Shown here: positions 33,980-60,343 of the stretch, piece by piece
Position numbering within the stretch: position 1 is the first letter of the stretch
Layout of the letters: each line of letters opens with the position of its first letter
Assembly (NCBI GenBank): GCA_964628055.1
Contig: CAZVNL010000001.1
Location: 4,114-68,113 of the forward strand
From: an uncultured bacterium
GTDB lineage: Bacteria > Fidelibacterota > Marinisomatia > Marinisomatales > TCS56
Reading direction: 5' to 3'
Length of the DNA stretch: 64,000 nt
Notes under the pieces: model-generated
Database searches by the model: none
What the model was told of the DNA's origin: nothing
Seen by the model: only the letters and a program-made list of their open reading frames with translations
Made by a program: the position numbers and the translations under genes

Positions 33980-34173
33980 AACGATGGCGCTATCTATCGG
34001 ACTAATGGCACACTCCTTTGACTCAATTCCAATTTAACAACCTTCGATTCAATTTACAGTTAATCCCGCGTGGGAATAAATGGTTTTAAGAAGATAAAAT
34101 TCAAGCAGGATTAGTAAACCGTAATCTCAAGTCCCAAACCCACTTATTCGATCAACGGTTTTCCCCTCCCTGC

Positions 34174-34797
34174 TCAGGAACGCTTTGAAATTCCTCCCTC
34201 ACCCCGCACCATTGATTCTATTTGACGATAGGTTTCCCAATCATCGATATCCCACTGAGCTTCTGGTAATGACATCGTGGCCAGATCGTCAGGATATTTC
34301 GTCAAAAGAACTTTCGCCCCTTGGTCCCCTGTTAGTTGACGCAACTTTGGAAACCAACCCCGGGAGAAGATAACCGGTATTCCCACGGTTCCGGCGTAGC
34401 TCGCAGCCATAATTGTTCGGTCTGATTGTCGAAATAAAGTGAGCATTTTACTCAGGTGACCCACGGCTACGAGGGGTTGATCACAAGATAAAAACAGCAC
34501 CCCTTGCGATTCAGGGTATAGCTTCTCCAACGTCAACACTCCCTCGCGAATGGAACTAGCAACCCCTTCCGGCCAATGGGGATTTACTATAATCCTCACA
34601 CTCCGTGGTAAGACCGATCGGATACGTTTCTGTTCGGCTCCTAATACCACGAAGACGGGTTCAACTGATAAAGCTAAGGCTACGTTTACGATATATTCCA
34701 AAATGGTTCCTTGATTCCAGGGAAGGAGCTGTTTAGGTTGTCCCAAACGTCGGGAATCTCCTGCCGCCAGAATAACAATCCCGATTTTACCTTTCAT
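34174..34797 (-). CDS. mocA: MobA-like nucleotidyltransferase (molybdenum cofactor cytidylyltransferase MocA-like)
   Basis: 207 aa with the N-terminal IVILAAGDSRRLGQPKQLLPW motif. Last gene of the operon, after xdhC. Confidence 0.75.
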   Translation of the reverse strand: MKGKIGIVILAAGDSRRLGQPKQLLPWNQGTILEYIVNVALALSVEPVFVVLGAEQKRIRSVLPRSVRIIVNPHWPEGVASSIREGVLTLEKLYPESQGVLFLSCDQPLVAVGHLSKMLTLFRQSDRTIMAASYAGTVGIPVIFSRGWFPKLRQLTGDQGAKVLLTKYPDDLATMSLPEAQWDIDDWETYRQIESMVRGEGGISKRS

Positions 34798-34826
34798 CTT
34801 GGTGTGCAGAAGGCTTCCATAAAATT

Positions 34827-35921
34827 TCAGTTAGTCCCCTGCTTTAATACTCCAAGTATCTCGGCAACAATAGCAAGGGCGATTTCCTGGGGGGTTTCGG
34901 CTTGTAGATCAAGCCCTACCGGAGCGTGCAAACGAGATCGTTGTTCTGATGTGAGTCTCCCTCGTTTACGGGCCAGATCAGTCAACAGCCTTTCCGTTCT
35001 CTTCCGGGACCCTAACAAGCCAATGTAGGGAATGGACGTTGCGAAGAAAATATCCAGTAACTGAAGGTCAAATTGGTAATTATGGGTAAGGATGACCACC
35101 CCGTTCAGATAATTAAGTTTGATATGTTGCGGTAACTCCTCATAAGGGGCAATGATAAATTCGTGTACATCTTGGAAGACCTCCTCCGTCGCTACGGCGG
35201 GCCGAGGATCCGTTAAAAAGACGCGCCAGCCCATGTCAGCCATTAATCGCACCAGAGGTCGCGCATCTTCACCACCCCCACAAATCAGGATTTGTATCGG
35301 CAACGGAATATAATCGAGCCAAACAGTTACCTTGCCTTCCGGAATTGTGTACACAGCTAATTGACTTTTTTGCTTCGTTAGGACCGTTTTCATATCTCTA
35401 ACGATTTCAGACTTCAAATAGTCAGGTAAAATATTCCCTTGGAGGACGCCTTTCCGGGAATAGCACACATGTTTCCCGCGCAAAGAAATTTCCTCTGGAT
35501 CAGTCGCAACTACGGCAGCTACGACCCCTTCCAGAAGGTTCCGGCGACACTGCTGAAAATAGTTTAACGGGTTGGCTGTATCATTAGTTACCACTGGTTC
35601 TAAAAAAACTGCCACCCGACCGCCACAACCTAAATTCAATCCCCAGAGTAAGTCCTCTTCGCTGGAAGTGTCGTAAGTAACAATGCGGGGCATATTATCT
35701 TTCAGAACTTTTTTCACATAGGTCTGGAGATCCCGTTCCATACAACCACCACTAATTGTACCGACTACAGGACATTCAACGGTGAAAAGTACTTTAGCCC
35801 CCATGCGACGATAGTGGGAACCTGCCACGCTTATCAACGTGGCTAAAACCATCTCCTGGTGCTTTCTCAGGCCTTTTGAATAGGCGTGTATAAGGGCGTC
35901 AATTTCGTCCATGGCCCTCAC
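34827..35921 (-). CDS. xdhC: XdhC/CoxI-family molybdoenzyme maturation protein
   Basis: 364 aa with an XdhC_CoxI N-domain (GSHYRRMGAK) and a Rossmann-like C-domain (ILICGGGEDARPL). Confidence 0.8.
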   Translation of the reverse strand: MRAMDEIDALIHAYSKGLRKHQEMVLATLISVAGSHYRRMGAKVLFTVECPVVGTISGGCMERDLQTYVKKVLKDNMPRIVTYDTSSEEDLLWGLNLGCGGRVAVFLEPVVTNDTANPLNYFQQCRRNLLEGVVAAVVATDPEEISLRGKHVCYSRKGVLQGNILPDYLKSEIVRDMKTVLTKQKSQLAVYTIPEGKVTVWLDYIPLPIQILICGGGEDARPLVRLMADMGWRVFLTDPRPAVATEEVFQDVHEFIIAPYEELPQHIKLNYLNGVVILTHNYQFDLQLLDIFFATSIPYIGLLGSRKRTERLLTDLARKRGRLTSEQRSRLHAPVGLDLQAETPQEIALAIVAEILGVLKQGTN

Positions 35922-35973
35922 CGACCCCGTTGAGCGGTAGAAGCTACCTGGCGGGGTTTAGTCACCGAAAACA

Positions 35974-36903
35974 TCAACCACCCACGAGAGCATGATACGC
36001 TTCTTTTAAATACAGGAGCATCATTTTCCTTCTATACTTCAAGGGAAGCAGATCATTTTCGACTGTTTGACACAGTTTCCGGGTCTGGTGATACATATTT
36101 TCCAACTTCAACGTCTTAACGGAGCCTTCAAGGATGACCGGCGCCATGGAAACACCATTAATCACAAAACGTAATCCATCGTTCTGGCTGCGAGTGGCCG
36201 CCACGGTGAGGGAAGTAAAGTCCAGGCTCTTTCGTAGGCGTAACTTACGGAACCACCACTTTTCCGGTTTCAACCCAACAATAATTTGGGTAAGGATATC
36301 CCCTTTCTCCAAATGTTGTAGGGGTACCAGACCGTCCGACCGGTACAGGTCTTCCAAAGCAAGGGTAGCTGATTCGTTGCACCGGGCAATGACGACTTTC
36401 GCGTGTAGGGCGATAAGCACCGGTGCCAAATCCGACACATTCCGCGCATAACAGTTTTTTAGGCCCCCAGTAACCAAACATTTAGCTCCCCCATCGCGTA
36501 AACAGTTTCCAATCGCTTCCCGCCAGTCCGGGGATTGATTGTAAAAGGTACAGCGATTTTGCACCAGGAGGTTTCCGCCCACGGTAGCGGTGTGTCGAAT
36601 AACCGGCGTGGCGATAGATTGAGCCGCTGTCACTAATAAGGGATAATGTTTCTGGATGAAACCGTGATTAATTACTTGTTTTAGCGTAACCATAGACCCC
36701 AACGTCAATTTATCGGGATGGCGCTCAATTTCCCGTAGGGCGGGTATTTCAAAAAGGTCGATTATGGTATGGATGGGGTTGAGTTTCTGTTGGCGGTGAA
36801 TTTGGATATCGGTTCCCCCCCCGAGATAAACCGCTGGGCCAGTTGCTTGCTGTGCCTGGGTTAAGGCCTCCTGGACAGTATTTGGTTTGTAATACGCTGT
36901 CAA
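35974..36903 (-). CDS. hcrB: 4-hydroxybenzoyl-CoA reductase, FAD/[4Fe-4S] beta subunit
   Basis: 309 aa CoxM-type FAD-binding subunit (LGGGTDI). It carries an insertion with four Cys spaced C-x15-C-x7-C-x8-C (residues 118-151), the feature that separates HcrB from ordinary XDH/CODH FAD subunits. Confidence 0.8.
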   Translation of the reverse strand: MTAYYKPNTVQEALTQAQQATGPAVYLGGGTDIQIHRQQKLNPIHTIIDLFEIPALREIERHPDKLTLGSMVTLKQVINHGFIQKHYPLLVTAAQSIATPVIRHTATVGGNLLVQNRCTFYNQSPDWREAIGNCLRDGGAKCLVTGGLKNCYARNVSDLAPVLIALHAKVVIARCNESATLALEDLYRSDGLVPLQHLEKGDILTQIIVGLKPEKWWFRKLRLRKSLDFTSLTVAATRSQNDGLRFVINGVSMAPVILEGSVKTLKLENMYHQTRKLCQTVENDLLPLKYRRKMMLLYLKEAYHALVGG

Positions 36904-39185
36904 GCCACTCCCCTCCTTTCCAGGGCTGCTAACACCCTGTCAGGGGTGATTGGTAATTCGAAAATTCGCACCCCAACTGCATCATAAATGGCGTTGCCGA
37001 CGGAAGGTAAAACGGGATGTATAGGCCCCTCACCAGCTTCCTTGGCGCCGTACGGGCCTTCTCTATCGTTAGATTCAATTATCGTAACATCCATGGGAGG
37101 CGTGTCCAGAGCAGTGGGTATACGGTAATCCAGTAGGTTGGCATTGATAATTTGCCCTTCCTGATAACGTAATTCTTCCATTAAGGCTTGGCCCAATCCC
37201 ATGTGGATGCAGCCTTCAATCTGCCCCTCCACGGCCAGTGGATTCAAGGCTTTCCCACAATCATGTGCCCCCCACACCTTGACAACTTTCACCGTGCCAG
37301 TTGAGGGATCCACTTCCACTTCACTGATAAACGCCCCGAAGCTGTAGGCCGGACTTAAACCGGCGCCGGCGCCTTTAAACGTTCCCCCCATTTTCGGTGA
37401 GGTATACGTACCCGTTGTGATGAAGGACCCTCGGCCCGCCAGGGCGACTTCCACCGCTTCATCCCACGAAAGATTCAGCTTCCCGTCGGAAGAAACAACC
37501 TGTTCCTCTTGAAAATGGAGCGTCTCCGCAGGCACGCCAAATTCTCTACTGATAGCCTGTGACATCTCTTTACGCAGGTTAAGAACCGCTTCCCTGGCGG
37601 CGTTCCCCACCATAAAGGTCACCCGACTGGAATAACTTCCTAAATCCACCGGCGTCAGGCGCGTATCCGCTGCTTCTAACTGGACCCTCTCTAAGGGTAA
37701 TCCCAACTCATGGGCAACGATTTGAACCAGGATTGTATCACTACCCTGTCCAATGTCACTGGCCCCACTAAAGACTACGACCCGGCCGTCAAAATCGAGC
37801 TTCGTATGCACCGTCGTTTGCGGGAAACGGTTCCAGATAATCGGTAGCGCACTCCCACTGATGTAAAAACCACAGGCTACGCCTAATCCCCGGCCATAGG
37901 GTAGTTTTCCATGGCGCTCATTCCACCGGGAGCGTTTTCGGACCGCAGCTAAACATTCTCGAACGCCGTTACTGGTAATCCGAAGTTTTCCTACCGTCTC
38001 GGTGTAGGCTGGCAGAAAGTTTTTTTTCCGAATATCACAAGGATCCACCCCCATTTTTTCAGCAAGCATGTCGAGAACGGTTTCGAAGGCATAGCGAGAA
38101 TTCACAGCACCGTGTCCCCGCATGGCGCCGCTCTGGGGTTTGTTGGTGTACACGCGCTGGGTTCGGAATCCAAAACGATCGATGCGATAGGGACCCTGGA
38201 GTAAAACACCGTTATAATAAGCCGTGACCACACCGAAACTGGCGTAGGCCCCACCGTCAATGACAATGTCCGCCTCCATCGCTGTCAATTGTCCCTTTTC
38301 CGCGCCACCCAGAGTGAGGGTTAATTCCGTGGGATGTCGCCCGTGATTGGTTAGGAAAACCTCCTCCCGCGTGAGCACGCACTTAACCGGTCGATGCGTT
38401 TTCCAGGCCAGATAGGCGGTAATGATTTCGTGGGGAAAGGGATCGCTCTTCCCGCCGAAACCGCCCCCCAGGGCGGGCTTACGAACGTGAACGCGATGAA
38501 GGGGAAGGTTCAACACGGCCGCCAGGGTACGATGGAGATAATGGGGCACCTGAGTCGCGCTAATCACCGTCAGGGTGCCATCTTCATTCCAGACTGCAAC
38601 CGTGGCGTGGGGTTCGGTAAATGCATGGTTAAGTCCGGCAAACCGAAACGTTCCCCGAGCGGTGTAGGGTGCGCTCTGAAGCGCCTCCTCGGGATCGTTG
38701 AAGCGCAGCTCAGCAATCTTGTGAATATTTGTTCCCTGCTTGCTGTGGGAATGGATGGGTTCCGCCGAATCACATGGTTCCAGCGCTTCTTTCGGGTCAA
38801 TAAAGGCGCGTAACGGTTCATAGTTCACAGAAATCGCCGCCACACCTGCCGCTGCTGCAGAAGCATTCTCGGCGGCCACGGCCGCTACGATCTCGCCCAC
38901 ATAACGAACCTTCTCCACCGCCAGGGCGGTCTCATCGGGACTGATGGGCAATATCCCGAACGGCGTGGGTATGTCTGTTCCAATTACTACCGCCACCACC
39001 CCCGGTATTTGCATTGCTTTGTTTACCTTAATCTTTTTTATCCTGGCGTGCGGATAAGGACTACGCAAGAATTTCACCGTAAGCATATTGGGAAAGTTAA
39101 AATCCCCCGAGTAGGTAGTCTTGCCGGTAACTTTTTGCAGGGCATCCACGTATGGCGTGGGTTTCCCGAGGGGAGAATGTTTCAC
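36900..39185 (-). CDS. hcrA: 4-hydroxybenzoyl-CoA reductase, molybdopterin alpha subunit (XDH family)
   Basis: 761 aa aldehyde oxidase/xanthine dehydrogenase a/b-hammerhead plus Moco-binding domains (GGGFGGK, AGEGP). Flanked by the 2Fe-2S and FAD subunits with 4-nt overlaps. Confidence 0.8.
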   Translation of the reverse strand: MKHSPLGKPTPYVDALQKVTGKTTYSGDFNFPNMLTVKFLRSPYPHARIKKIKVNKAMQIPGVVAVVIGTDIPTPFGILPISPDETALAVEKVRYVGEIVAAVAAENASAAAAGVAAISVNYEPLRAFIDPKEALEPCDSAEPIHSHSKQGTNIHKIAELRFNDPEEALQSAPYTARGTFRFAGLNHAFTEPHATVAVWNEDGTLTVISATQVPHYLHRTLAAVLNLPLHRVHVRKPALGGGFGGKSDPFPHEIITAYLAWKTHRPVKCVLTREEVFLTNHGRHPTELTLTLGGAEKGQLTAMEADIVIDGGAYASFGVVTAYYNGVLLQGPYRIDRFGFRTQRVYTNKPQSGAMRGHGAVNSRYAFETVLDMLAEKMGVDPCDIRKKNFLPAYTETVGKLRITSNGVRECLAAVRKRSRWNERHGKLPYGRGLGVACGFYISGSALPIIWNRFPQTTVHTKLDFDGRVVVFSGASDIGQGSDTILVQIVAHELGLPLERVQLEAADTRLTPVDLGSYSSRVTFMVGNAAREAVLNLRKEMSQAISREFGVPAETLHFQEEQVVSSDGKLNLSWDEAVEVALAGRGSFITTGTYTSPKMGGTFKGAGAGLSPAYSFGAFISEVEVDPSTGTVKVVKVWGAHDCGKALNPLAVEGQIEGCIHMGLGQALMEELRYQEGQIINANLLDYRIPTALDTPPMDVTIIESNDREGPYGAKEAGEGPIHPVLPSVGNAIYDAVGVRIFELPITPDRVLAALERRGVA

Positions 39186-39646
39186 CGCTCCTCCTCAGCA
39201 CTTTTTAACACTGCCGTCACGATCTTAGCATAACCGGTACAGCGACAGAGATTCCCGCTCAGGGCTTCCCGAACTTCCTCGCTTGTGGGCCGGGATTGCT
39301 CCTGAAGGAAAGCAATACTGGTCATCACCATCCCGGGGGTACAGTAGCCACACTGAATACCCCCTTCCGCCACTAAGTACCTTTGAACTGGATGCAACTC
39401 GCCGTTGTGCGCCACTCCCTCGATGGTAAGGATGGTTTTACCAGCACAGCGTAAAGTCGGCGTTAAGCAGCTCAAAACGGGCTTATCTTCCACTAGCACG
39501 GTGCAGGCTCCACACGATCCCTGGTCGCACCCCGGTTTCGTTCCTGTCAATCCCAAACGTTCCCTTAACGTGACCAGTAGTGTTTCGTGGGGTTCCACTA
39601 AAAGCGTCCGGGAAAAACCGTTAACGGTAAAAGTAACCGTCTCCAT
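39182..39646 (-). CDS. hcrC: 4-hydroxybenzoyl-CoA reductase, 2x[2Fe-2S] gamma subunit
   Basis: Start reassigned to METVTFTVNG. Plant-type CDQGSCGAC and second-cluster QCGYCTPG ... CRCTGY motifs are present. Confidence 0.85.
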   Translation of the reverse strand: METVTFTVNGFSRTLLVEPHETLLVTLRERLGLTGTKPGCDQGSCGACTVLVEDKPVLSCLTPTLRCAGKTILTIEGVAHNGELHPVQRYLVAEGGIQCGYCTPGMVMTSIAFLQEQSRPTSEEVREALSGNLCRCTGYAKIVTAVLKSAEEER

Positions 39647-39651
39647 GATAT

Positions 39652-40794
39652 TTAATCTGCCTTTTCCAGGAGCATTGCCACCCCTTGCCCATGCCCCACA
39701 CATAGGGCTGCGATACCTCTTCGTTTGTCTTCGGCGGCCAGACTATGAGCTAACGTGACGGCCAGGCGCAATCCTGACATGCCCAAAGGATGCCCTAAAG
39801 CCACGGCGCCACCGTGGATATTTAACCGATTGGCGTCGATTCCCAATTCACGTTGGCAGGCTAAAACCTGGACCGCAAAAGCTTCATTGATTTCCCAAAG
39901 GTCAATGTCCTCTAAGGTCAGGCCGGTCTGGTCTAATAATTTCCGTATGGCCCCCACCGGTCCTAACCCCATGATCATGGGATCCAACCCGACGGTTACA
40001 CAAGGACCCACCTTCGCCAGGGCTGCCCACCCCATCTGGTGGCGAGTCTTTTCACCGACGACCAAGGCCATGCAAGCGCCATCTGAAATACCGGAACTGT
40101 TCGCCGCGGTGACGGTGCCGCCTTCTTTGAAAACCGGTTTTAAAGCACTCAAAGTTGGTAAATCAGAAAGACGAGGTTCTTGATCTTCAATAACGATGGT
40201 CCCATCGGGTAGGGTGATTTTTATTCGCTCACGGTTAAAAAAGCCTTCCGCCTGAGCGGCGAAATAACGCTGGTTACTTTCCAAGGTATAGGTATCTTGC
40301 GCTACCCGATTAATGCTGTATTGTTCGGCCAACTTTTCAGCGGTGAGGCCCATGTTATTCCACGGAAATTCGTACGCTGCGAACAGGTCGGGGTGATAAT
40401 CGATGCTCGCTGTCATGGGGACGTGCCCCATGTGTTCAACGCCCCCCACCACGGCTACTTTATTGGTTCCGCAGCGAATGCTGTCCACCGCAAATTGCAA
40501 CGCTGTTAAACTGGAAGCGCATAAGCGGTTGATGGTTACACCGGGAACGCTTTGAGGCAGCCCGGCCAATAACCAAATCAATCGAGCTAAGTTCTTCCCT
40601 TGTTCTAAATGCTGCCCCACACAGCCTAAATAAAAGTCATCTACCTTACCGGGTACGACGCTGGTGCGCTGGAGTAGTGCGCGTAGCGTCTGGACGGCGA
40701 GTTCATCGGCGCGTATATCTTTAAAGATCCCTTTTTCAGGGTGACCGCGACCAATGGGCGATCGGCAACCGTCTATCAGGTATGCAGTCTCCAT
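39652..40794 (-). CDS. Acetyl-CoA C-acyl/acetyltransferase (thiolase II)
   Basis: 380 aa with nucleophile NRLCASSL, C-terminal NIHGGAVALGHPLG and CVGHGQG. Confidence 0.9.
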   Translation of the reverse strand: METAYLIDGCRSPIGRGHPEKGIFKDIRADELAVQTLRALLQRTSVVPGKVDDFYLGCVGQHLEQGKNLARLIWLLAGLPQSVPGVTINRLCASSLTALQFAVDSIRCGTNKVAVVGGVEHMGHVPMTASIDYHPDLFAAYEFPWNNMGLTAEKLAEQYSINRVAQDTYTLESNQRYFAAQAEGFFNRERIKITLPDGTIVIEDQEPRLSDLPTLSALKPVFKEGGTVTAANSSGISDGACMALVVGEKTRHQMGWAALAKVGPCVTVGLDPMIMGLGPVGAIRKLLDQTGLTLEDIDLWEINEAFAVQVLACQRELGIDANRLNIHGGAVALGHPLGMSGLRLAVTLAHSLAAEDKRRGIAALCVGHGQGVAMLLEKAD

Positions 40795-40839
40795 CGGGAA
40801 CTTAATTGGTCGCCAAAAAACGAGTTAGTTGAAGCATTT

Positions 40840-41577
40840 TCACAACAGGTTCGCTCCGATGCTTTTCCCCCCATCCACGTAAATAATCTGTCCGGTGATG
40901 AAACGGGCTTCTGGCGAGGCCAAAAAAAGTACGGTTTCAGCTACATCTTGGGGTGTTCCGAATTCTTTGCTCGGTTGGGCCGCAACCAGCGCTGCGAACG
41001 TTTCCGAGGGGAGCGACCGGGTTAAAGGGGTGTCAATTAACCCCGGCGCTACGGCGTTTACGGTGACGTGGTAGGCTGCCAATTCCAGGGCCAAAACGCG
41101 GGTCAGACTTACCAGACCACCCTTGGAAGCAGCATAGTTTGACTGCCCAAAGTTCCCCAGCCAAGCTCGCGAGGTCAAGTTAATGATGCGGCCTCCCTGC
41201 TGCTGACGGAAATGGGGAGCCACCTCGCGACACAGGAGCCAGGGCCCTTTTAAATTCACCTTCAGAACGAGATCAAAATCCTCTTCGGACATTTTCCAGA
41301 TGACGTGATCCCGGACGATGCCGGCGTTATTCACCAGTACATCTATTCTACCCGACTGGGTAAGTACCTGGCGTACAAAAGCGTGCACCTGGTCAGCCTG
41401 ACTCACATCGCCCCGACTGACGAAAAAATTTTTACCATAGTCGGTTGAAAAATCAGCCAGTGGGGAAACATCAAGGATATGCACCAGAGCACCGTATTCA
41501 AGAAAGCGGTCCACGATGGCTTTCCCAATCCCCCGGCAACCGCCAGTTACGACTATGACCTGGCCGCTGAAATCCAT
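40840..41577 (-). CDS. SDR-family oxidoreductase (FabG / 3-hydroxyacyl-CoA dehydrogenase-like)
   Basis: 245 aa with TGGCRGIG, NNAG and SxnYAASK catalytic motifs. Confidence 0.85.
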   Translation of the reverse strand: MDFSGQVIVVTGGCRGIGKAIVDRFLEYGALVHILDVSPLADFSTDYGKNFFVSRGDVSQADQVHAFVRQVLTQSGRIDVLVNNAGIVRDHVIWKMSEEDFDLVLKVNLKGPWLLCREVAPHFRQQQGGRIINLTSRAWLGNFGQSNYAASKGGLVSLTRVLALELAAYHVTVNAVAPGLIDTPLTRSLPSETFAALVAAQPSKEFGTPQDVAETVLFLASPEARFITGQIIYVDGGKSIGANLL

Positions 41578-45466: not shown

Positions 45467-45475
45467 ATTCCTTTT

Positions 45476-46531: not shown

Positions 46532-46547
46532 TCTCTATTCCCCCCTG

Positions 46548-49582: not shown

Positions 49583-49586
49583 GGCC

Positions 49587-50810: not shown

Positions 50811-50812
50811 AG

Positions 50813-52531
50813 TTACTCCAAATGGATAATGTAAACGGGATCAGGCAAAGGTTCTTCCAGGCCATAGAGATTTTCGATATTGGCTTTAAAAACTTTCCCC
50901 ACCACATTAGGCGCTAATTTCATGGAAGGGGTTAGTTCCTCGTTCTCGATGCTCAATTCGTAGTCGATGAGCATAGCAGCTTTCAGCCGGGCGTACTTTT
51001 CGTCGATGGCATGGTTGATCTCCCCCAGGCAATTCTTCAAACACTGGGCAAACTCCTCCATATGCCGGGGACATTTACACCCTACTTTTAAGCGGGATTC
51101 GTCGGTGACTTTGGAAAACATGGTTTTATTGGGAAAAAGTAGGGTCACGGGATAATCCCTCCCACTCCCGGCCACGAAGGCATAGGAAAGGTAAGTGCAG
51201 TCCTTGATAATCAAATTTTCTATTTCGGTGGGGATCACTTTTTCGGCATTACTCAACTTGAAGATGCGATCTTTCCGCGAGATCAAACACAAGCCGGTGG
51301 AGGTGAGGGCGCCCACATCCCCGGTGGCAAACCAACCATCGGGGGTCAACACAGCCTCAGTGGCTTCCGGATTGCGAAAATACCCTGCCATAACATTGGG
51401 GCCTTTCACCAAGATTTCGCCGTCCTCCTTAAGGGCAATTGTTACGCCCGGGATGGGTTTGCCAACGATACCCGCCTGGCGCGGCAAACTAGGCTCCGTC
51501 ACCGTGCAACAGGGTGATGTTTCCGTCAATCCCCATCCTTCATAGACGGGGATGTTCTGTGCTTCGAACATATTGGAGATGGACTTGGGCAAAGGGGCCG
51601 CTGCTGTAAAGATAAATCGCAACTCGTCATGAAAAATGACTTTTTCCAGTTCTGGATCCTGGAGCATGCGGGTGGTGATTTCCTGGTAAACACGAGGTAC
51701 GCTAAAGAAAACAGTGGGTCGTACCTGTTTCCAATTTTGTAGGAGCAAGTCAATATCCTTGCCAAACCCGTGTTCCAGGGAGAGGACGGCACCGTTCACC
51801 AAAGCGGCATACTTCTCGAAAATGCCACCAAAACTGTGGTGCCAGGGTAAATAGGAGAGAAAGCGGTCTTTGGTACTCAACTGCCAGAGGACCTTCATGG
51901 CGGCTTGTTGTGAGAGGATATTTCTGTGGGTGAGTTGCACCAATTTGGGTTTTCCCATGGTTCCCGAGGTGTACATCATGAGTGTCACTGTATCAGAGGA
52001 TACTTCCGCACCTGCGATGAGCTCCCCGTTAGGGTCGTGTAGAAGGAGTTGGGAAAAAGGAACCACATTAGCAGCCGCACTTTCCAGAGGGTCGAAGTGA
52101 ACAATCCGTCGATAGGTCTCCGGATGGGGTATTTTAGCAAACTGTTCCTCGTCGGCGACCACCACAAAACGGGGGTCACAAAACTCTATTAACGCGGCAG
52201 CCCGGTTAGGAGGATAGCCGGCAAAGATGGGAACAGCAACACCCCCCATGGCCATGATGGCCAACTCCAGTTCCAACATTTCCTGCCGATTCCGGGAGAG
52301 CAATGCCACCCGGTCTCCATCTTGAAATCCCACCTCCTGGAAGTAGCCCTGGATGGCGGTAACATCTTTTTGAAACTGACTCCAGGACAAGGGTTGAAAG
52401 CGATTATTGCGTACTTCCTGGTAAATGGCGTGGTCCCGAAGGCGATCTGCATTGGTATTGAGCATGGTAGCCAAGTTAGAGGCGTAATCAGGGAGTGAGA
52501 GTTCACTTTCCAGGATCGGATCAGGTTTCAT
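50813..52531 (-). CDS. AMP-forming acyl-CoA ligase, ACSL/FadD15 (COG1022)-like
   Basis: 572 aa with YTSGTMGKPKLVQLTHRNI, GWGLTETS and GWFATGDVG...ISRKDRIFKLSNAEKVIPTEIE. The last block is the long-chain-type linker rather than the BadA/BclA benzoate-CoA ligase pattern. Confidence 0.75.
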   Translation of the reverse strand: MKPDPILESELSLPDYASNLATMLNTNADRLRDHAIYQEVRNNRFQPLSWSQFQKDVTAIQGYFQEVGFQDGDRVALLSRNRQEMLELELAIMAMGGVAVPIFAGYPPNRAAALIEFCDPRFVVVADEEQFAKIPHPETYRRIVHFDPLESAAANVVPFSQLLLHDPNGELIAGAEVSSDTVTLMMYTSGTMGKPKLVQLTHRNILSQQAAMKVLWQLSTKDRFLSYLPWHHSFGGIFEKYAALVNGAVLSLEHGFGKDIDLLLQNWKQVRPTVFFSVPRVYQEITTRMLQDPELEKVIFHDELRFIFTAAAPLPKSISNMFEAQNIPVYEGWGLTETSPCCTVTEPSLPRQAGIVGKPIPGVTIALKEDGEILVKGPNVMAGYFRNPEATEAVLTPDGWFATGDVGALTSTGLCLISRKDRIFKLSNAEKVIPTEIENLIIKDCTYLSYAFVAGSGRDYPVTLLFPNKTMFSKVTDESRLKVGCKCPRHMEEFAQCLKNCLGEINHAIDEKYARLKAAMLIDYELSIENEELTPSMKLAPNVVGKVFKANIENLYGLEEPLPDPVYIIHLE

Positions 52532-53355
52532 GCATTTGCCTCCAGGAGTTTAAAATGGCGATAACCGCCCCACAGAGCAGCCCCAATGGCGCCGGCGGCA
52601 TATCCATTTTCAGCGGTAAAAACCTCGAGTCCCAAGTTGCGTTCGTGGATCAGTTCGCGTATGGCCACCAGGAGTCCTTCGTCCTGGGCTAGGCCGCCGG
52701 TTAACGCCACAGGGGATTCGGCCTTTAATTTGCTTAGTAATTTAATGACTCGACGGGCAATAGAAAGATGAATCCCTTTAATAATATCGGGGGTGGGAAT
52801 TCCCTGAGAGACCATGTTAATCACATCGGTCTCAGCCAAGACAGCACAAATACCGCTGGTTTTAGCCGGGTTGGTGCTCTGGAGTGACAGGGGACCTACC
52901 TCGTCAATGGTAACTCCCAGATAGCGAGTGATATTTTCTAAAAATTGTCCCGAACCGGAAGCGCACTGTCCCGTCATGGTATAATTTTTCACCCGAGCCC
53001 CCACATCCAGGGACATAACCCGGCAGAACAGGGCCCCTAAATCCACCACCGTTCGCACTTCGGGATGATAGTGATAAGCCCCCCGGGTATGGGTCGTCAT
53101 GCTGTAAAAGTGGCCCCGTTTCTTGCGCACCAATTCTCCCTCCCCGGTGGAGGCCACATACACCAAGTCATTGCAGTCGAGGGCGTGTTGTTTCAGCACA
53201 TAGGCAACGGTTTTATCGATAACTTCAGTGGGATTGCGTTTGCGGATTTTCTCATTTACCAAGGTCAAGACCTGAGGAGGGTCAGCATACTCTACCAGCG
53301 CCACTTTAATAAAGCTGCTGCCTACGTCAATACCCATGGTGAGAGGTGTATTCAT
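52528..53355 (-). CDS. bcrD: Benzoyl-CoA reductase ATPase subunit D (BcrD/BadG-like)
   Basis: 275 aa with an ASKHA fold (GIDVGSSFIK, DLGALFCRV) and Cys contexts TGQCASGSG and GICAVLA. Fourth position of a C-B-A-D block. Confidence 0.8.
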   Translation of the reverse strand: MNTPLTMGIDVGSSFIKVALVEYADPPQVLTLVNEKIRKRNPTEVIDKTVAYVLKQHALDCNDLVYVASTGEGELVRKKRGHFYSMTTHTRGAYHYHPEVRTVVDLGALFCRVMSLDVGARVKNYTMTGQCASGSGQFLENITRYLGVTIDEVGPLSLQSTNPAKTSGICAVLAETDVINMVSQGIPTPDIIKGIHLSIARRVIKLLSKLKAESPVALTGGLAQDEGLLVAIRELIHERNLGLEVFTAENGYAAGAIGAALWGGYRHFKLLEANA

Positions 53356-54644
53356 TGACGTTGGGCACTAAACAGGGCGGCTCCCAAAGCGCCCATAAAA
53401 ATTGAATCTGGATGAATATTGATAGTCACTTTTCCATAACTCTGGGTCACCATCTGGCTCACGTATTTTACGACCGCGGGATTGCGGGCCACCCCACCCG
53501 TAAAAGTGAATTCGTTCCGCACACCCCCAGAGCGGGCCAGAAGAGCAAAGGCTCGTTGGACAATTGCCTGGTGTAAGCCAGCCAAAATGTTTTCCTTTTT
53601 CTCCCCCAAATTTAAATATTCACGTAATTCGGCTCCGGCGAAAACCGTGCAGGTACTGCAAATATTGGTCTCGTAATCGGCGTTCAAAGCGATGGGACCC
53701 AATTCACTGACGCTAACGTTCATTTCGTCGGCGATATAACCTAAGTACCGTCCACACCCAGCGGCGCAACGATCATTCATCTGAAAACTGGTTACCATAC
53801 CGTGTTGGTCAACCTGGATGGCCTTTGTATCCTGGCCGCCTATATCTAAAACGGTGCGCGTTTGGGGAAAATTGGCGTGGGCCCCCATGGCGTGGCATAA
53901 AATTTCCGACTTGATATGCTTTTGTTCGAAGGGCAGGAGCTGGCGACCGTAGCCGGTGCCGATGTAATCCGCCGGCTCCAACGAGAATTGGGCCACCGAT
54001 TTGAGGAATTTACGTAATGGTTCGCGGGCGGAAGCGAAGGTCGCGGGTAATGAATCCAGGGCCGCCTCCATCAACTCCTGAAAATTAAAATCAATGACCT
54101 GATTTTCCACAGGTGTGATGGAGCGATCGTAGAGGGCCACCAGTTGATCGAATAGGGCCTTGTCCTCGTCCTGGATTTTCTGCAGGTAAATACTGCTGAA
54201 AAGGTCACGGAAAAATTCCGAAGTCGTGGTGACTTTGCCATTAAAGAAGCGGTCTCGACATTCTTCCTGGATCTCCACCGCGAGTCGCTTCAGTAAGGTT
54301 TTAATATCCTTTCGGTGAGAGGGAGAGGCCACGGTTTTCAAGTTCGTTTCCATGGTATCAATGAGCAGACGGAACCGGGCCAGGAACTGGAGATAATTAA
54401 AGCGATTTTTCAAGGGGGGCAGCATTTTATCCCAGGAGTTTTTTCCCTTCCCTTTGGCATTTAATTCACGATGGAGAAAGAAAAACCGGGAGTTGAACTC
54501 TGCTTCCATGCGGGCAATGTCAGCCGCAACCTCATAGTTGGAACGCGTGTTAGTAATGCCACGACCAATAATGGTCCCATATTGATCGATAAAGACGGCC
54601 TTGGAGGTCGTGGAGCCCAGGTCAATGCCTAAAAATACTTTCAT
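53352..54644 (-). CDS. bcrA: Benzoyl-CoA reductase ATPase subunit A (BcrA/BadF-like)
   Basis: ~430 aa from MKVFLGIDLGSTTSK (the longer 457-aa ORF would overlap bcrB). A ~180-aa helical insertion splits the ASKHA fold, as in the long BCR ATPase subunit. NDRCAAGCG and CSTCTVFA are present. Confidence 0.8.
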   Translation of the reverse strand: MKVFLGIDLGSTTSKAVFIDQYGTIIGRGITNTRSNYEVAADIARMEAEFNSRFFFLHRELNAKGKGKNSWDKMLPPLKNRFNYLQFLARFRLLIDTMETNLKTVASPSHRKDIKTLLKRLAVEIQEECRDRFFNGKVTTTSEFFRDLFSSIYLQKIQDEDKALFDQLVALYDRSITPVENQVIDFNFQELMEAALDSLPATFASAREPLRKFLKSVAQFSLEPADYIGTGYGRQLLPFEQKHIKSEILCHAMGAHANFPQTRTVLDIGGQDTKAIQVDQHGMVTSFQMNDRCAAGCGRYLGYIADEMNVSVSELGPIALNADYETNICSTCTVFAGAELREYLNLGEKKENILAGLHQAIVQRAFALLARSGGVRNEFTFTGGVARNPAVVKYVSQMVTQSYGKVTINIHPDSIFMGALGAALFSAQRQ

Positions 54645-54693
54645 GGCTGGTGGGGCTACCCTGGCCCTTCTCTTAAAATGGTCGGTTTTTCTC

Positions 54694-56004
54694 TCATGCC
54701 AAAACCTCATCGGACAGAAGTTCATTGGACGTGGGTTGACTCTGGCGCTGTTCGAGCATCTGGAAAAACGAGTCCAGGCGGTTTTTGATGTTGGAATAGG
54801 AATAATAACGGGGATCGACTAAATCAGTCTCGATAAAACCAACCGGTATTTGGAGTCGCTCTTCCAATTCACGCATGATGAACAATTGTCCGGCCGAAAA
54901 AGAATTACAACTCTTGATGGAATTCACCACAAATCCGTCAGCATGATAGCGTTTAATGAGCCCTTCAATGAGGTCAATCCGCTGGGGTAGGTTGCGATTG
55001 GTGTAACACCCCAGACAATAGTACGCCATACTCTCCAGGGGTTGGGTGGCAGAGTGGCGAAACCCATCGTCATAGATACCGCCCACCCGGGTATAAGTAG
55101 ACCCCACAAATACAGCGCCTAAATCGTAAAAGATTTTCCAAAAATTGCGAAAGTGCGTCCAGTTAGGAGGTCCTTCTATGACCAGACGAAACTTTTCTTC
55201 CCCAAGGGAACCTTCGGGTGTGATGGGACCCAACTTATTCGTGATGCGAAATTGAATTTCTTTAAGCAATTCCTGGTAGTACTCTACACAAACCCTGGTA
55301 CCCCGAAAGGCGGTAAAAATGGGACCAATGTAATATACACCACCAAAATAGGCGTCAATGGGTGACGGACGATGCCGGGCGGAATCGAAAACTTGAACTA
55401 AAAGATCCTCGGCTTGGGCGCTGAGGTCCATTTTCTCAACCAATAAATCACGGTCTAAACGCTTCCCGCTTACCTTCTGAAAAATGGGAATTACTTCGGT
55501 TTCCAATTGATTCACAATGTAACGAACCATGGACGGTTCTATCTGTTCCCCCTCCTGGTAAGGGACATGGAGCATGGCAATCTCGGTTTGCGGATAGAAT
55601 TGTTTCAGATTTTCAAACCACTTCATGAAGACAAAGCAGCCCGTGTAACTCAATAGTAAAATATCTGGTGGGGGAAGCTGCTGGCCGGTGGGTCCGATAT
55701 TCCCCTGAAGCATCATCCCTATATCACATTTAACATAGGAACACACGTCTTCCGGGTAACCCATGTCCTCGGCTTCCCGGATGTACCCGTGAGATTTTTT
55801 CCGCATTCCCGATTGCAAGGCGTTGATTTCGGGGTAAACAGGTAACATGTCAAAGGCCCCGATCAACTCCGTGAGATTCCCGGGGACGAAGGTGTAAACG
55901 ACTTTCTTTCCCGTTTCCCGCACCTGGGACAATTCCAGGAAATGCTGTGCCAGCATTTGCTTTTGCTTGAGCATACTGGTCTCTTTTTGTACCGTGGTAT
56001 TCAT
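54694..56004 (-). CDS. bcrB: Benzoyl-CoA reductase subunit B (BcrB/BadE-like)
   Basis: 436 aa of the 2-hydroxyacyl-CoA dehydratase/BCR family, with conserved Cys in DVCSYV, YTGCF and IKSCN. Second position of the C-B-A-D block. Confidence 0.8.
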   Translation of the reverse strand: MNTTVQKETSMLKQKQMLAQHFLELSQVRETGKKVVYTFVPGNLTELIGAFDMLPVYPEINALQSGMRKKSHGYIREAEDMGYPEDVCSYVKCDIGMMLQGNIGPTGQQLPPPDILLLSYTGCFVFMKWFENLKQFYPQTEIAMLHVPYQEGEQIEPSMVRYIVNQLETEVIPIFQKVSGKRLDRDLLVEKMDLSAQAEDLLVQVFDSARHRPSPIDAYFGGVYYIGPIFTAFRGTRVCVEYYQELLKEIQFRITNKLGPITPEGSLGEEKFRLVIEGPPNWTHFRNFWKIFYDLGAVFVGSTYTRVGGIYDDGFRHSATQPLESMAYYCLGCYTNRNLPQRIDLIEGLIKRYHADGFVVNSIKSCNSFSAGQLFIMRELEERLQIPVGFIETDLVDPRYYSYSNIKNRLDSFFQMLEQRQSQPTSNELLSDEVLA

Positions 56005-56060
56005 GGGATTAAGGTTACCGTTTCTTTATTACTTATGTTGTTGTTGGCCATTGTTCTTGG

Positions 56061-57227
56061 TTACTCCCATAATTTTATCATATCGGCAAAGGTACCGGCT
56101 TGCTCCTTGATGACGTGGAATTGTCCCAAATTTTCGTGATACTGGAAACTGAAATGCCGAATGTGTTGGCGATCCATGGCTTGCTCCAATTGGGGGCGAT
56201 CCAGGAGCGCCGGGTCACAAAAACTGGGGGCGCAGAAAATCACGCCATCCACCCGGTTGTCGGTGACGTATTGGGCAAACTTTTCGCTCTTAAGGTGATC
56301 CCGATCGTAAACCGCCGAGGAGAGGGCACTCTGGGTCAAATAGCTATGAACCAAAGCCCCCACCGGATCATCGGTATCGGTGGGAATCTCACCCTGGATC
56401 CAGGTGAGCCCCAGTTGCAGGTCATCATCAATAATGTAGCAACCGGCATTCTCAATGGTTTGCAGCAAACCAAGGGGGGGTTGTTCGCAAAAAGAGCCGG
56501 AAAGGACCACCCTGATTTTATCTTCCGGTTCTCGTTGAACTTGCGGGGCCAGGGACAAGATTGCCGTCAACAAACGGTTGTGAGCTTGAACCGAGATCAC
56601 ATTTCCCGCCCGGCGTAGCAAATAGTAATCCAGGACGGGAATAAGGTGTGGATATTCACTATGGAAGGAACTTACTTCCCTCAGCAAGCGCCGGTTTTTA
56701 TTGTATAACCGGATGGCTTTATTAAGGCGCTTAGTATCTATGGAAATCCCATTTAACGTTTGCAAGGAGTGCACCAACTGTTCTAACTCCGTGCGGTAAA
56801 ATTGCCCCCCCACCATTGGATCCATATTCTGGGGAAAATCTAAATAGCGAACATATTTGTCTTTAAACTTAAGTTTAAATATACCGGACAAGTTCCTGAT
56901 AACATCACAGATAGCGGGAAATAAAATACCGTCAAACTGATCTAAATGACCGCGGAGGGCCAATTCGATGACGGTGCGGGGAAGATGGCAAATGTAGCTC
57001 TGGAAATAGGCATCACCGTGAACGACGGGGAGCCGATCCCCGGCCCCGAAGATACCCACCGGCAGCATTTCGCCGGCCACAATGATTTCCCGGGGTACAT
57101 ATATGGGTAGGAACCCGATGATACGTCGGGATGGCTTCTGCTTTTTCCATTTCCGGGCATAGCTAAACGTGAGATCATCCACCCACTGGCGCGTCTGTTG
57201 GATCGCCGACTGGTAATCAGGAAACAT
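56061..57227 (-). CDS. bcrC: Benzoyl-CoA reductase subunit C (BcrC/BadD-like)
   Basis: ~388 aa from MFPDYQ (the longest ORF starts at 57278 and overlaps marR by 62 nt). Dehydratase-family fold with Cys in SYICHL, AICDV and PSFCDP. Confidence 0.75.
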   Translation of the reverse strand: MFPDYQSAIQQTRQWVDDLTFSYARKWKKQKPSRRIIGFLPIYVPREIIVAGEMLPVGIFGAGDRLPVVHGDAYFQSYICHLPRTVIELALRGHLDQFDGILFPAICDVIRNLSGIFKLKFKDKYVRYLDFPQNMDPMVGGQFYRTELEQLVHSLQTLNGISIDTKRLNKAIRLYNKNRRLLREVSSFHSEYPHLIPVLDYYLLRRAGNVISVQAHNRLLTAILSLAPQVQREPEDKIRVVLSGSFCEQPPLGLLQTIENAGCYIIDDDLQLGLTWIQGEIPTDTDDPVGALVHSYLTQSALSSAVYDRDHLKSEKFAQYVTDNRVDGVIFCAPSFCDPALLDRPQLEQAMDRQHIRHFSFQYHENLGQFHVIKEQAGTFADMIKLWE

Positions 57228-57663
57228 TCGCCGTGTCCGTATTGTTGGCTTGTCTCCAGATTCGATTGAGCATGTCACGAAAAGAACCTAATTCATCGGG
57301 AGACAACTGCTGGATGAGTTCCTGATCTGTGGTGGCGACCACGTCCTCAAATTCCTTTAGAAGCTGGCGCCCTTTATCGGTGAGCCACAAATGAATAACC
57401 CGGCGATCTCTGGCAGTACGTTTCCGCACAACGTATCCATCTTTCTCTAAGCGGTCCGCCAAGCCAGTGATGGCCGGTTTGTCCAAAAATACCCGCTTCC
57501 CAATTTCTGACAGCGATAACCCGTCGGTCTGGGCCAGCGTGTTAAGGACACTATGTTGGGAGGAAGTGATGCCATACTCGGATAGACGGGCATCCAGAAC
57601 CTTTTTCATGCTACGGGCGGTGCGAACAACTAAAAAACCGGTGCTCTGTTCGTCAGAACTCAT
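57217..57663 (-). CDS. MarR-family transcriptional regulator (BadR-like position at the head of the operon)
   Basis: 148 aa with a winged HTH (LSLSEIGKRVFLDKPAITGLADRLEKDGYVVRKRTARDRR). Confidence 0.85.
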   Translation of the reverse strand: MSSDEQSTGFLVVRTARSMKKVLDARLSEYGITSSQHSVLNTLAQTDGLSLSEIGKRVFLDKPAITGLADRLEKDGYVVRKRTARDRRVIHLWLTDKGRQLLKEFEDVVATTDQELIQQLSPDELGSFRDMLNRIWRQANNTDTANVS

Positions 57664-57757
57664 ACAAAAAAGGGTGACTTGTAGGATGGTAGAGAGTTGA
57701 CCAGGTTCACTTTCATTGGGATAAGCCCTGATAATGCGGTCTCATGGGGAAATAAAT

Positions 57758-57777
57758 ATAGTTAACGTATTAACTAT
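57758..57777. promoter_or_regulatory. Candidate MarR operator: 8-bp perfect inverted repeat
   Basis: ATAGTTAA-cgta-TTAACTAT, ~95-115 nt upstream of the marR ATG in an AT-rich 205-bp intergenic region. Confidence 0.45.
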
Positions 57778-57868
57778 TTACAAGTGAACTTTACGCCGCC
57801 AAGGCAACTAATTCATGGGAGAGAAAAGTGCTGGTGGGAAAAAGGGTATGTGGATTAGGGATGCGTAC

Positions 57869-60333: not shown

Positions 60334-60343
60334 CGAACGTTCA

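Follow-up and report, generated by a model that had tools for sequence, protein, structure and literature searches.

The window analysed here, a stretch of 64,000 nucleotides from contig CAZVNL010000001.1 (GenBank assembly GCA_964628055.1) of an uncultured bacterium, contains a cluster of 21 consecutive open reading frames (ORFs) on the minus strand, at positions 34174-57663, with a predicted role in the anaerobic degradation of aromatic acids. In order of transcription, the genes are marR, bcrC-bcrB-bcrA-bcrD, lig, hgdX, kpr, act, thl1, had, oah, dch, a fusion gene for a 3-hydroxyacyl-CoA dehydrogenase and an enoyl-CoA hydratase (HADH-ECH), a short-chain dehydrogenase gene (sdr), thl2, hcrC-hcrA-hcrB, xdhC and mocA. 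A first-pass annotation of the window had described this co-directional cluster, and its number of genes, strand and extent were borne out by an ORF check of the window and by public gene calls for the same contig (ENA ERZ4201062 NODE_1, 211,820 bp), which agree for the first twelve genes. The gene identities and order that it gave also stand, apart from the seventh gene, hgdX, which had been taken for a paralogue of bcrB and is HadB-like instead. Overall, the locus is probably a chromosomal catabolic cluster that funnels aromatic acids through benzoyl-CoA under anoxia, with the lig-hgdX-kpr-act quartet as one of its proposed entry routes. The first-pass annotation had singled out the host; the more interesting result is this conserved accessory quartet, a description of which was not found in the literature searched.

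Gene identities were assigned from NCBIfam profiles with their equivalog cut-offs, together with Pfam and PDB comparisons, and the named family is the best NCBIfam match for every subunit listed below except HcrC. Related loci were collected in a BcrB scan of one genome per GTDB species, which gave 77 loci, all from metagenome-assembled genomes (MAGs) and cited here by L numbers; the scan patterns were peptides of the window BcrB, and the resulting counts are lower bounds that are biased to close relatives. The genes for a class I benzoyl-CoA reductase (BCR), for ring opening and for β-oxidation are as follows.

56061..57227, minus strand: bcrC, class I BCR subunit C, electron-storage subunit equivalent to BzdN (TIGR02263, 427 bits; cut-off 421)
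54694..56004, minus strand: bcrB, class I BCR catalytic subunit B (TIGR02260, 616 bits; cut-off 487)
53352..54644, minus strand: bcrA, BCR ATPase subunit A (TIGR02259, 460 bits, full-length; cut-off 578; Pfam BcrAD_BadFG)
52528..53355, minus strand: bcrD, BCR ATPase subunit D (TIGR02261, 282 bits; cut-off 313)
46548..47813, minus strand: thl1, thiolase, BktB-like (TIGR01930, 408 bits; cut-off 241)
45476..46531, minus strand: had (TIGR03201, 408 bits; cut-off 339)
44369..45460, minus strand: oah, 6-oxocyclohex-1-ene-1-carbonyl-CoA hydrolase, the ring-opening enzyme (TIGR03200, 572 bits; cut-off 464)
43560..44372, minus strand: dch, cyclohexa-1,5-diene-1-carbonyl-CoA hydratase-like crotonase (TIGR03189, 226 bits; cut-off 292)
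41578..43560, minus strand: HADH-ECH fusion, dehydrogenase N-terminal and hydratase C-terminal
40840..41577, minus strand: sdr, short-chain dehydrogenase, FabG-like
39652..40794, minus strand: thl2, thiolase, FadA/PcaF-like (TIGR01930, 406 bits; cut-off 241)

The four bcr genes are adjacent in the order C-B-A-D and make up a class I BCR set of two HGD-D subunits (B and C) and two BcrAD/BadFG ATPases (A and D). BcrB scored 616 bits on the BcrB model against 153 on HadB, and BcrC 427 bits on the BcrC model against 165 on HadC, with the Bcr models far above both Bzd-type and dehydratase models. PDB matches were MbdO for BcrB (1.8e-55) and MbdN and HadC for BcrC (1.8e-48 and 3.4e-34, respectively). 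In an alignment with BzdO and MbdO, cysteines of the window BcrB coincide with C95, C128 and C380 of BzdO, the ligands of the catalytic [4Fe-4S] cluster in the solved structure (PMC11971306), and the triad that binds [4Fe-4S]-OH2 is thus kept. The residues His131 and Trp46 of BzdO were considered as a means of telling a BCR from HgdX and dropped; HgdX is without both, but the window BcrB and MbdO also have Phe at the position of His131. BcrA and BcrD score under their cut-offs, yet each is by far the best full-length match, and TIGR03189 is likewise the best match of Dch (next best 131 bits) though under cut-off. In the HADH-ECH fusion, FadB/FadJ and PaaH-type models match in two stretches, and its orthologue in L080 carries the Pfam domains 3HCDH_N, 3HCDH and ECH_1. 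Together, these scores support the prediction of a Bcr-type (Thauera/Rhodopseudomonas) class I BCR and, with BcrB, BcrC, Had and Oah all above their equivalog cut-offs, sustain the Thauera-type pathway of bcrCBAD, dch, had and oah that was read from the sequence in the first pass. That reading had been weighed against a grouping of the BCR-like subunits with dehydratases, a proteobacterial lineage of the contig and a splitting of the cluster by internal promoters and terminators; for bcrCBAD none of these was found, and the Bcr models outscore HadB and HadC.

The 3' part of the cluster encodes a three-subunit molybdenum enzyme and two genes linked to its cofactor.

39182..39646, minus strand: hcrC, gamma subunit with two [2Fe-2S] clusters (TIGR03193, 171 bits; cut-off 258; XdhC_XDHase, 176 bits)
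36900..39185, minus strand: hcrA, molybdenum-cofactor alpha subunit, 4-hydroxybenzoyl-CoA reductase-like (TIGR03194, 848 bits; cut-off 995)
35974..36903, minus strand: hcrB, FAD-binding beta subunit (PDB 1RM6_B, 1.3e-37; TIGR03195, 181 bits; cut-off 405)
34827..35921, minus strand: xdhC, XdhC-family molybdenum-cofactor insertion chaperone (NF045664, 163 bits; TIGR02964, 83 bits)
34174..34797, minus strand: mocA, MobA-like nucleotidyltransferase for molybdenum-cofactor nucleotide attachment (Pfam NTP_transf_3, 126 bits)

The alpha, beta and gamma subunit genes are encoded together, with the likely start of hcrC, read from the sequence, at the ATG at 39646, 5 nt past the stop codon of thl2. None of the three subunits reaches its NCBIfam equivalog score (HcrA 848/995, HcrB 181/405, HcrC 171/258); for HcrC, XdhC-type models score equally well, whereas TIGR03194 is the best, full-length match of HcrA (next best 538 bits), and one member of the 90% cluster of HcrA is named '4-hydroxybenzoyl-CoA reductase alpha subunit' by JGI. 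In HcrB, all four positions aligned to Cys122, Cys138, Cys146 and Cys155 of 1RM6_B are Cys, which we take to be the ligands of the extra [4Fe-4S] loop cluster specific to 4-hydroxybenzoyl-CoA reductase. Because of this four-cysteine loop and the genomic context, and with the equivalog scores not reached, assignment as a 4-hydroxybenzoyl-CoA reductase-like enzyme is supported, in keeping with the hcrCAB call of the first pass. XdhC-like and MobA-like genes accompany hcr genes in other loci too, and the adjacency of sdr and hcrC recurs in L043, L046, L048, L051 and L078.

In the pathway that these homologies suggest, HcrCAB, matured by XdhC and MocA, would reductively dehydroxylate 4-hydroxybenzoyl-CoA to benzoyl-CoA, and BcrCBAD would dearomatise benzoyl-CoA in an ATP-dependent reaction to a cyclic dienoyl-CoA. 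Dch, Had and Oah would then catalyse hydration, oxidation and hydrolytic ring opening to 3-hydroxypimelyl-CoA, with β-oxidation by the HADH-ECH fusion, the short-chain dehydrogenase and the two thiolases to follow. This benzoyl-CoA and 4-hydroxybenzoyl-CoA core, along with the host assignment given below, is very likely to be correct.

MarR regulator and transcription of the cluster

On its upstream side the cluster ends at a gap of 205 nt (57664-57868) and on its downstream side at one of 194 nt (33980-34173), and its first gene and upstream region hold two regulatory features.

57217..57663, minus strand: marR, MarR-family transcriptional regulator (Pfam MarR), with an 11-nt overlap with bcrC
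57755..57783, minus strand: candidate promoter and MarR operator, a sigma-70-like TTGTAA-17-TATATT overlapping a perfect palindrome

The palindrome, ATAGTTAA-N4-TTAACTAT, is perfect and lies at 57758-57777, about 95 nt upstream of marR, and the overlapping TTGTAA-17-TATATT is the only intergenic sigma-70-like site on the coding strand. Seven related loci (L004, L005, L015, L016 and L080-L082), whose MarR proteins are 64-75% identical, have the same palindrome at 75-114 nt ahead of marR, and more distant loci have a related ATAGTT...AACTAT motif. The position of marR is conserved in at least 18 related loci. NCBIfam matches of the protein are to MarR-family models such as HpaR and SlyA, all under equivalog cut-offs. 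The conserved palindrome is a plausible MarR operator and, because marR in addition overlaps bcrC by 11 nt, autoregulated co-transcription is likely.

Distances between the genes were computed with gene-caller or homology-supported start codons. From the 5' end, with overlaps given as negative values in nt, they are marR/bcrC -11, bcrC/bcrB +56, bcrB/bcrA +49, bcrA/bcrD -4, bcrD/lig -4, lig/hgdX +41, hgdX/kpr +4, kpr/act +18, act/thl1 -4, thl1/had +16, had/oah +15, oah/dch -4, dch/HADH-ECH -1, HADH-ECH/sdr 0, sdr/thl2 +45, thl2/hcrC +5, hcrC/hcrA -4, hcrA/hcrB -4, hcrB/xdhC +52 and xdhC/mocA +29. The junctions thus range from the 11-nt overlap of marR and bcrC, as noted in the first pass, to a gap of 56 nt between bcrC and bcrB, where 52 nt had been given as the largest; eight junctions overlap, one more than previously counted, with a number that varies with the start codons chosen, and one (HADH-ECH/sdr) is abutting. 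Terminator-like hairpins were not enriched over shuffled sequence (30 versus 25.4 ± 4.9, and 13 versus 8.2 ± 2.9), and every minus-strand match within 34174-57663 lies inside coding sequence, none between genes, which agrees with the earlier remark that no terminator is recognisable. Promoter-like motifs in the cluster were no more frequent than in shuffled sequence when scanned with a sigma-70 consensus, which may not suit promoters of the FCB superphylum.

The 21 genes are probably one MarR-controlled operon, and a single transcript across the cluster is predicted from this arrangement. It is possible, although doubtful, that the co-directional genes form several transcription units, for example one of marR-bcrCBAD, a second in which the quartet and the ring-opening genes are joined, and a third of sdr-thl2-hcrCAB-xdhC-mocA. 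Gaps of 41-56 nt, the five widest (bcrC/bcrB, bcrB/bcrA, lig/hgdX, sdr/thl2 and hcrB/xdhC), could house internal promoters, for which a sigma-70 consensus may be ill-suited, and in Bacteroidota-type loci sdr-hcrCAB is a separate unit divergent from bcrCBAD. In the window, however, no gap exceeds 56 nt, eight junctions overlap and terminator-like sites are absent between the genes, and the gene order is kept in a relative with 74% identical HgdX.

The lig-hgdX-kpr-act quartet

Between bcrD and thl1 lie four genes that form a contiguous group.

50813..52531, minus strand: lig, AMP-forming acyl-CoA ligase, first gene of the quartet (Pfam AMP-binding and AMP-binding_C_3)
49587..50771, minus strand: hgdX, single HadB-like (alpha-type) subunit of the radical enzyme family of BCR and 2-hydroxyacyl-CoA dehydratases
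48620..49582, minus strand: kpr, NAD(P)H-dependent oxidoreductase of the ketopantoate reductase (KPR; ApbA/PanE) family (TIGR00745, 189 bits; cut-off 141)
47810..48601, minus strand: act, HgdC-type ATP-dependent activase (TIGR00241, 174 bits; cut-off 125)

HgdX, the supposed BcrB paralogue, is 28% identical to the window BcrB and scored 185 bits on the HadB model against 132 on BcrB; its best PDB match is 3O3M_A, the alpha subunit of (R)-2-hydroxyisocaproyl-CoA dehydratase (E = 1.9e-41, 373 residues aligned), and it is better placed in a functional module separate from the BCR. Cys77, Cys116 and Cys344 of HgdX (numbering of the 407-residue ORF) align with the BzdO [4Fe-4S] ligands C95, C128 and C380. 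Assignment as a double-cubane cluster protein was rejected, with 67.5 bits on NF040772 against a cut-off of 350. The window holds no beta-type partner for HgdX except BcrC, the only other HGD-D genes being bcrB and bcrC, and the same single-gene arrangement, with no alpha/beta heterodimer pair, was found in 41 loci. The ligase matches generic acyl-CoA and long-chain ligases best (about 220 bits), and no benzoate-CoA ligase model is among its top 25 NCBIfam matches; its closest PDB entry is feruloyl-CoA synthetase (114 bits), with malonyl-CoA and oxalyl-CoA synthetases also among the closest. By these matches, it is not a canonical benzoate-CoA ligase. Characterised enzymes of the KPR family reduce 2-oxo acids; PDB matches of the KPR-like enzyme include 3WFI, and a role as a D-2-hydroxyacid dehydrogenase is proposed for it. 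The PDB comparisons of the KPR-like enzyme and the ligase identified no substrate.

Searches with the window proteins revealed that the order bcrC-B-A-D-lig-hgdX-kpr-act is repeated across many of the 77 loci. In 41 species-level loci, mostly from FCB-type phyla, bcrCBAD is adjoined by genes for the ligase, HgdX and the activase; the labels of these loci comprise Fidelibacterota/Neomarinimicrobiota, Zixibacteria, Calditrichota, Ignavibacteriales, Bacteroidota (Chitinophagales and Saprospiraceae), Acidobacteriota, Eisenbacteria and others. The relative with 74% identical HgdX shares with the window the order of the 17 genes that run from marR to hcrC, in unrelated flanks. In the rearranged clusters L052, L053 and L061, the quartet is contiguous, and the ligase remains grouped with its other three genes rather than with bcrCBAD. 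In five loci, kpr and act are fused in-frame (L044:8351-10231, L046:16506-18383, L048:15849-17735, L049:16838-18685 and L051:16534-18423), giving a protein of about 626 residues with ApbA, ApbA_C and BcrAD_BadFG domains (Pfam checked on the L044 protein); the hosts of these fusions are Calditrichaceae, Bacteroidetes, Chitinophagales and Saprospiraceae MAGs. The quartet is missing from ten loci in which the sequence after bcrD runs to 5 kb or more; BcrB identity is at or below 64% in all ten, and most of them have the classical had-oah-dch-bcrCBAD order. A neighbour-joining tree of BcrB and HgdX, built for a quartet-carrying BcrB clade, was uninformative, since the quartet occurs at only 64% BcrB identity in L052, L053 and L061 and rooting on a single HgdX leaf voided the monophyly checks. 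Downstream of bcrCBAD-sdr-thl2 in L045, an Ignavibacteriaceae MAG, lies a divergent second set of one HGD-D-like and two BcrA/D-like genes (22-29% identity to the window proteins), at the position that the quartet occupies in other loci.

These family memberships moderately favour a 2-hydroxyacyl-CoA dehydratase route for the quartet, in which the KPR-like enzyme would reduce a 2-oxo acid to the (R)-2-hydroxy acid, the ligase would form its CoA ester and HgdX, energised by the activase, would yield the 2-enoyl-CoA. Aryl-lactates are a tentative choice of substrate: phenylpyruvate or phenyllactate and their 4-hydroxy analogues would lead to cinnamoyl-CoA and 4-coumaroyl-CoA, and β-oxidation of these to benzoyl-CoA and 4-hydroxybenzoyl-CoA would open a route for the complete anaerobic oxidation of phenylalanine and tyrosine. 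Aryl substrates are the most economical choice because the quartet travels with bcrCBAD and the cluster holds hcrCAB, an hcr-adjacent short-chain dehydrogenase gene and spare β-oxidation genes (a second thiolase). At its fullest, the proposal is of an undescribed, widespread module (at least 41 species-level MAGs with at least eight phylum-level labels) in which a homodimeric HgdX converts arylpyruvates and aryllactates to cinnamoyl-CoA and 4-coumaroyl-CoA that feed the class I BCR, so that uncultured FCB sediment bacteria might oxidise phenylalanine and tyrosine completely and bypass the phenylacetyl-CoA/phenylglyoxylate route of denitrifiers; we advance this version as a possibility only. 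Searches of the literature for BCR together with 2-hydroxyacyl-CoA dehydratase, dehydropantoate or phenyllactate returned no description of the quartet. For an arylpyruvate-to-cinnamoyl-CoA-type route, the literature searched offered only speculation in a 2026 paper on benzene degradation (PMC13416013), and in Desulfococcus multivorans phenyllactate is instead oxidised to phenylpyruvate (PMC5109826).

Several points weigh against this interpretation of the cluster. The activase here comes with one HGD-D subunit, while the 2-hydroxyacyl-CoA dehydratases characterised so far are heterodimers of alpha and beta; BcrA, BcrD, Dch and all three Hcr subunits are under their NCBIfam cut-offs; and the sequence gives no substrate for HgdX, the KPR-like enzyme or the ligase. 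Ferredoxin, glutaryl-CoA dehydrogenase and aminotransferase genes were not found in the operon or among the scanned window ORFs, Pfam scans of the window flanks gave nothing linked to aromatic amino-acid metabolism, and the lower benzoyl-CoA pathway alone can explain the β-oxidation genes. The related loci are all from MAGs, and the pathway is predicted from genes.

The same family evidence would equally suit a dehydratase route for aliphatic 2-oxo-dicarboxylates, for example from 2-oxoglutarate through 2-hydroxyglutaryl-CoA to glutaconyl-CoA, or from 2-oxoadipate or 2-oxopimelate to the matching enoyl-CoA, with linkage to bcr due only to a shared lower pathway (glutaconyl-CoA, crotonyl-CoA and pimelyl-CoA-type intermediates). 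The lower benzoyl-CoA pathway does pass through glutaconyl-CoA and 3-hydroxypimelyl-CoA, and the malonyl-CoA and oxalyl-CoA synthetases among the closest solved relatives of the ligase would be in line with dicarboxylates. The closest of all, however, is feruloyl-CoA synthetase, genes for glutaconyl-CoA decarboxylase and glutaryl-CoA dehydrogenase are not in the cluster, and the quartet directly adjoins bcrCBAD rather than the β-oxidation genes, a link that is kept in rearranged loci. We consider dicarboxylates unlikely substrates.

A further reading takes the ligase as a non-orthologous benzoate- or 4-hydroxybenzoate-CoA ligase and HgdX, with the activase and the KPR-like protein, as a radical enzyme driven by ATP whose substrate would be an aryl-CoA or an alicyclic CoA ester (by reductive dehydroxylation of hydroxybenzoyl-CoA or further reduction of the dienoyl-CoA), or HgdX as a second catalytic subunit that pairs with BcrC. 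The 64-kb window has no other candidate for a benzoate-CoA ligase and no beta-type partner for HgdX but BcrC, HgdX, BcrB and BzdO are members of one radical enzyme family, and co-occurrence with BCR is strict across phyla. Nevertheless, HgdX scores higher on HadB than on BcrB or BzdO and has an activase of its own, the ligase keeps with the rest of the quartet in L052, L053 and L061, and the reduction of 2-oxo acids by KPR-family enzymes fits a dehydratase route better. This reading as a whole is improbable.

Should the dehydratase route feed aromatic amino-acid skeletons into the BCR, the consequences would reach beyond this locus. Metagenome surveys often take bcrABCD as a marker of hydrocarbon or lignin-monomer degradation, and many bcr counts would then reflect the mineralisation of proteins and peptides by FCB bacteria. 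HgdX would also give the radical enzymes of the BCR and 2-hydroxyacyl-CoA dehydratase family their first single-subunit member of the dehydratase type whose catabolic context is defined, and biochemical work could conveniently start from the KPR-activase fusions.

Host and genomic setting

Three genes flanking the cluster, encoding an S9 peptidase (5979-8159), RmuC (20648-21760) and a transporter of the major facilitator superfamily (MFS; 28419-29693), fall in 90%-identity clusters with proteins that NCBI labels 'Fidelibacterota bacterium' (MFQ6606669, MFQ6606682 and MFQ6606445, respectively, from a Fidelibacterota MAG), and the closest named relatives of BcrB and HgdX are from Fidelibacterota or Neomarinimicrobiota MAGs. 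By these markers, the host is a member of Fidelibacterota (formerly Marinimicrobia) within the FCB superphylum and not of a proteobacterial lineage. The first-pass annotation, which had suggested that flanking genes be used in this way, had arrived at an FCB-like host from a protein with a type IX secretion system (T9SS) tail; the host inference stands, but the tail is only a marginal Pfam match (27.9 against 27.0). Misassembly or mis-binning that joined proteobacterial DNA to this contig, or horizontal acquisition in the very recent past, would fit the slightly higher GC of the operon (0.51, against 0.48 and 0.43 in the flanks), the Alphaproteobacteria, Chromatiales, Melainabacteria or Lentisphaeria labels of some related loci and the different flanks of relatives, but is highly improbable, given that the contig was assembled independently in ENA (211,820 bp), NCBI (179,221 bp) and JGI (164,836 bp) data, that GC at third codon positions (GC3) in operon genes (0.44-0.61) overlaps that of flanking genes (0.40-0.54), that the closest relatives (BcrB 80-82% identical, marR included) are Fidelibacterota MAGs, and that the classical had-oah-dch-bcrCBAD loci, several in proteobacterial MAGs, have BcrB only 57-64% identical. 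Misassembly in particular is unlikely because the operon departs little from its flanks in GC and GC3 and all three data sets contain near-identical contigs; as a signal of horizontal transfer, GC and GC3 were set aside, the difference being weak.

Class I BCR biochemistry comes almost exclusively from facultatively anaerobic Proteobacteria, and an ATP-dependent pathway had been called unusual for an FCB-type host. This was overstated in view of the 41 loci with the same core and of a 2025 study in which MAGs of Zixibacteria, Bacteroidota, KSB1 and Acidobacteriota are reported to carry class I BCR (PMC11704145); the host is unusual only relative to cultured, biochemically studied organisms. 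A search of the literature for benzoyl-CoA with Marinimicrobia, Fidelibacterota or Zixibacteria gave no report of a BCR in Fidelibacterota/Marinimicrobia. The window and the 41 related MAG loci represent a distinct, well-conserved version of the cluster that is common in uncultured FCB-type sediment bacteria, including Fidelibacterota.

Nine loci carry labels of Chromatiales, Chlorobiota, Alphaproteobacteria, Melainabacteria or Lentisphaeria. Seven of these (L010, L023, L031, L032, L038, L067 and L078) have the FCB-type cluster including the quartet, and their BcrB, where the locus includes it, is 74-81% identical; L052 has the quartet at 64% BcrB identity, and L076 has bcrCBAD at 65% with the quartet not visible. 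The discordant labels could reflect horizontal transfer or mis-binned or mislabelled contigs. No further conserved neighbours (aminotransferases, ferredoxins or transporters) were found in the 77 loci, where XdhC-like, MobA-like, hemerythrin and U32 peptidase genes recur beyond the operon; four other recurrent neighbour 'families' were rejected as antisense ORF artefacts in GC-rich loci.

Upstream of marR, the minus-strand genes at 57869-61927 encode a 210-residue protein (PF27271 AF_1327 in precomputed annotation; no match in the Pfam scan here), a HAMP-PAS histidine kinase, a 162-residue unknown protein and a porin. These genes are not conserved beside the cluster in the relative L080, where TrkH and a ClC channel stand in their place, and are probably not part of the catabolic system. 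Just downstream of the operon, at 28419-33979 on the minus strand, lies a separate co-directional group of genes for a sodium:solute symporter, a NamZ exo-beta-N-acetylmuramidase whose start overlaps the symporter by 8 nt, a 527-residue protein without a Pfam match and an Atg22/MFS-type transporter, which together look like a unit for scavenging muropeptides or MurNAc; the only cultured member of Fidelibacterota, Fidelibacter multiformis, is reported as living on exogenous muropeptides (PMC11652737). Further away, a Pycsar effector transmembrane domain protein (PycTM, 62 bits; 5047-5613, minus strand), next to a small protein with a collagen-repeat match (4478-5050, minus strand) and beside a tRNA gene (5749-5821), may be the remnant of an anti-phage system. 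The plus-strand region 11940-13957, with a 475-residue thiolase-like protein (Thiolase_C_1 and Thiolase_N) followed by an overlapping 238-residue ORF without a Pfam match, is possibly a thiolase pair of the archaeal type with no connection to the operon.

Comparison with known systems

The cluster resembles the class I BCR loci of mangrove-sediment MAGs (PMC11704145), which also come from uncultured non-proteobacterial sediment bacteria and carry bcrABCD with had and oah. The Zixibacteria, Bacteroidota and Acidobacteriota MAG loci of the present scan have the core order of the window. The mangrove study differs in that it scores the presence or absence of genes for lignin-monomer mineralisation, and its available text makes no mention of the quartet or of Fidelibacterota.

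Among biochemically studied systems, the order C-B-A-D of a class I BCR, the Dch/Had/Oah set and a MarR-family regulator are shared with Thauera aromatica (had-oah-dch-bcrCBAD-fdx) and Rhodopseudomonas palustris (badDEFG and the MarR-type BadR), and the equivalog cut-offs that BcrB, BcrC, Had and Oah pass were derived from these enzymes. In contrast to both, the host here belongs to Fidelibacterota, the ring-opening genes follow bcrCBAD instead of preceding it, the cluster is without a ferredoxin gene, the quartet is inserted after bcrD, and BcrA, BcrD and Dch are under equivalog cut-offs. The HcrCAB-like enzyme has the three-subunit architecture of the xanthine dehydrogenase family found in HcrCAB of Thauera aromatica (PDB 1RM6/1SB3), with the beta subunit aligned over 295 residues and the four loop cysteines kept; the window subunits are under cut-offs, however, and the hcr genes are co-located with xdhC, mocA and the BCR genes in one co-directional cluster.

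The quartet is most readily compared with the LdhA-HadA-HadI-HadBC system of C. difficile (PDB 3O3M) and FldH-FldA-FldI-FldBC of C. sporogenes, which likewise combine a 2-oxo-acid reductase, a CoA-activating enzyme, an ATP-dependent activator and a [4Fe-4S] dehydratase. Relative to these, the quartet would have a single alpha-like subunit in place of the alpha/beta heterodimer, an AMP-forming ligase in place of the CoA-transferase and a KPR-family reductase in place of the D-2-hydroxyacid dehydrogenase, both of them non-orthologous replacements. The reductase and activase are moreover fused in some of the lineages found here, and the link of the quartet is to a respiratory-type benzoyl-CoA pathway, rather than to Stickland-type fermentation.

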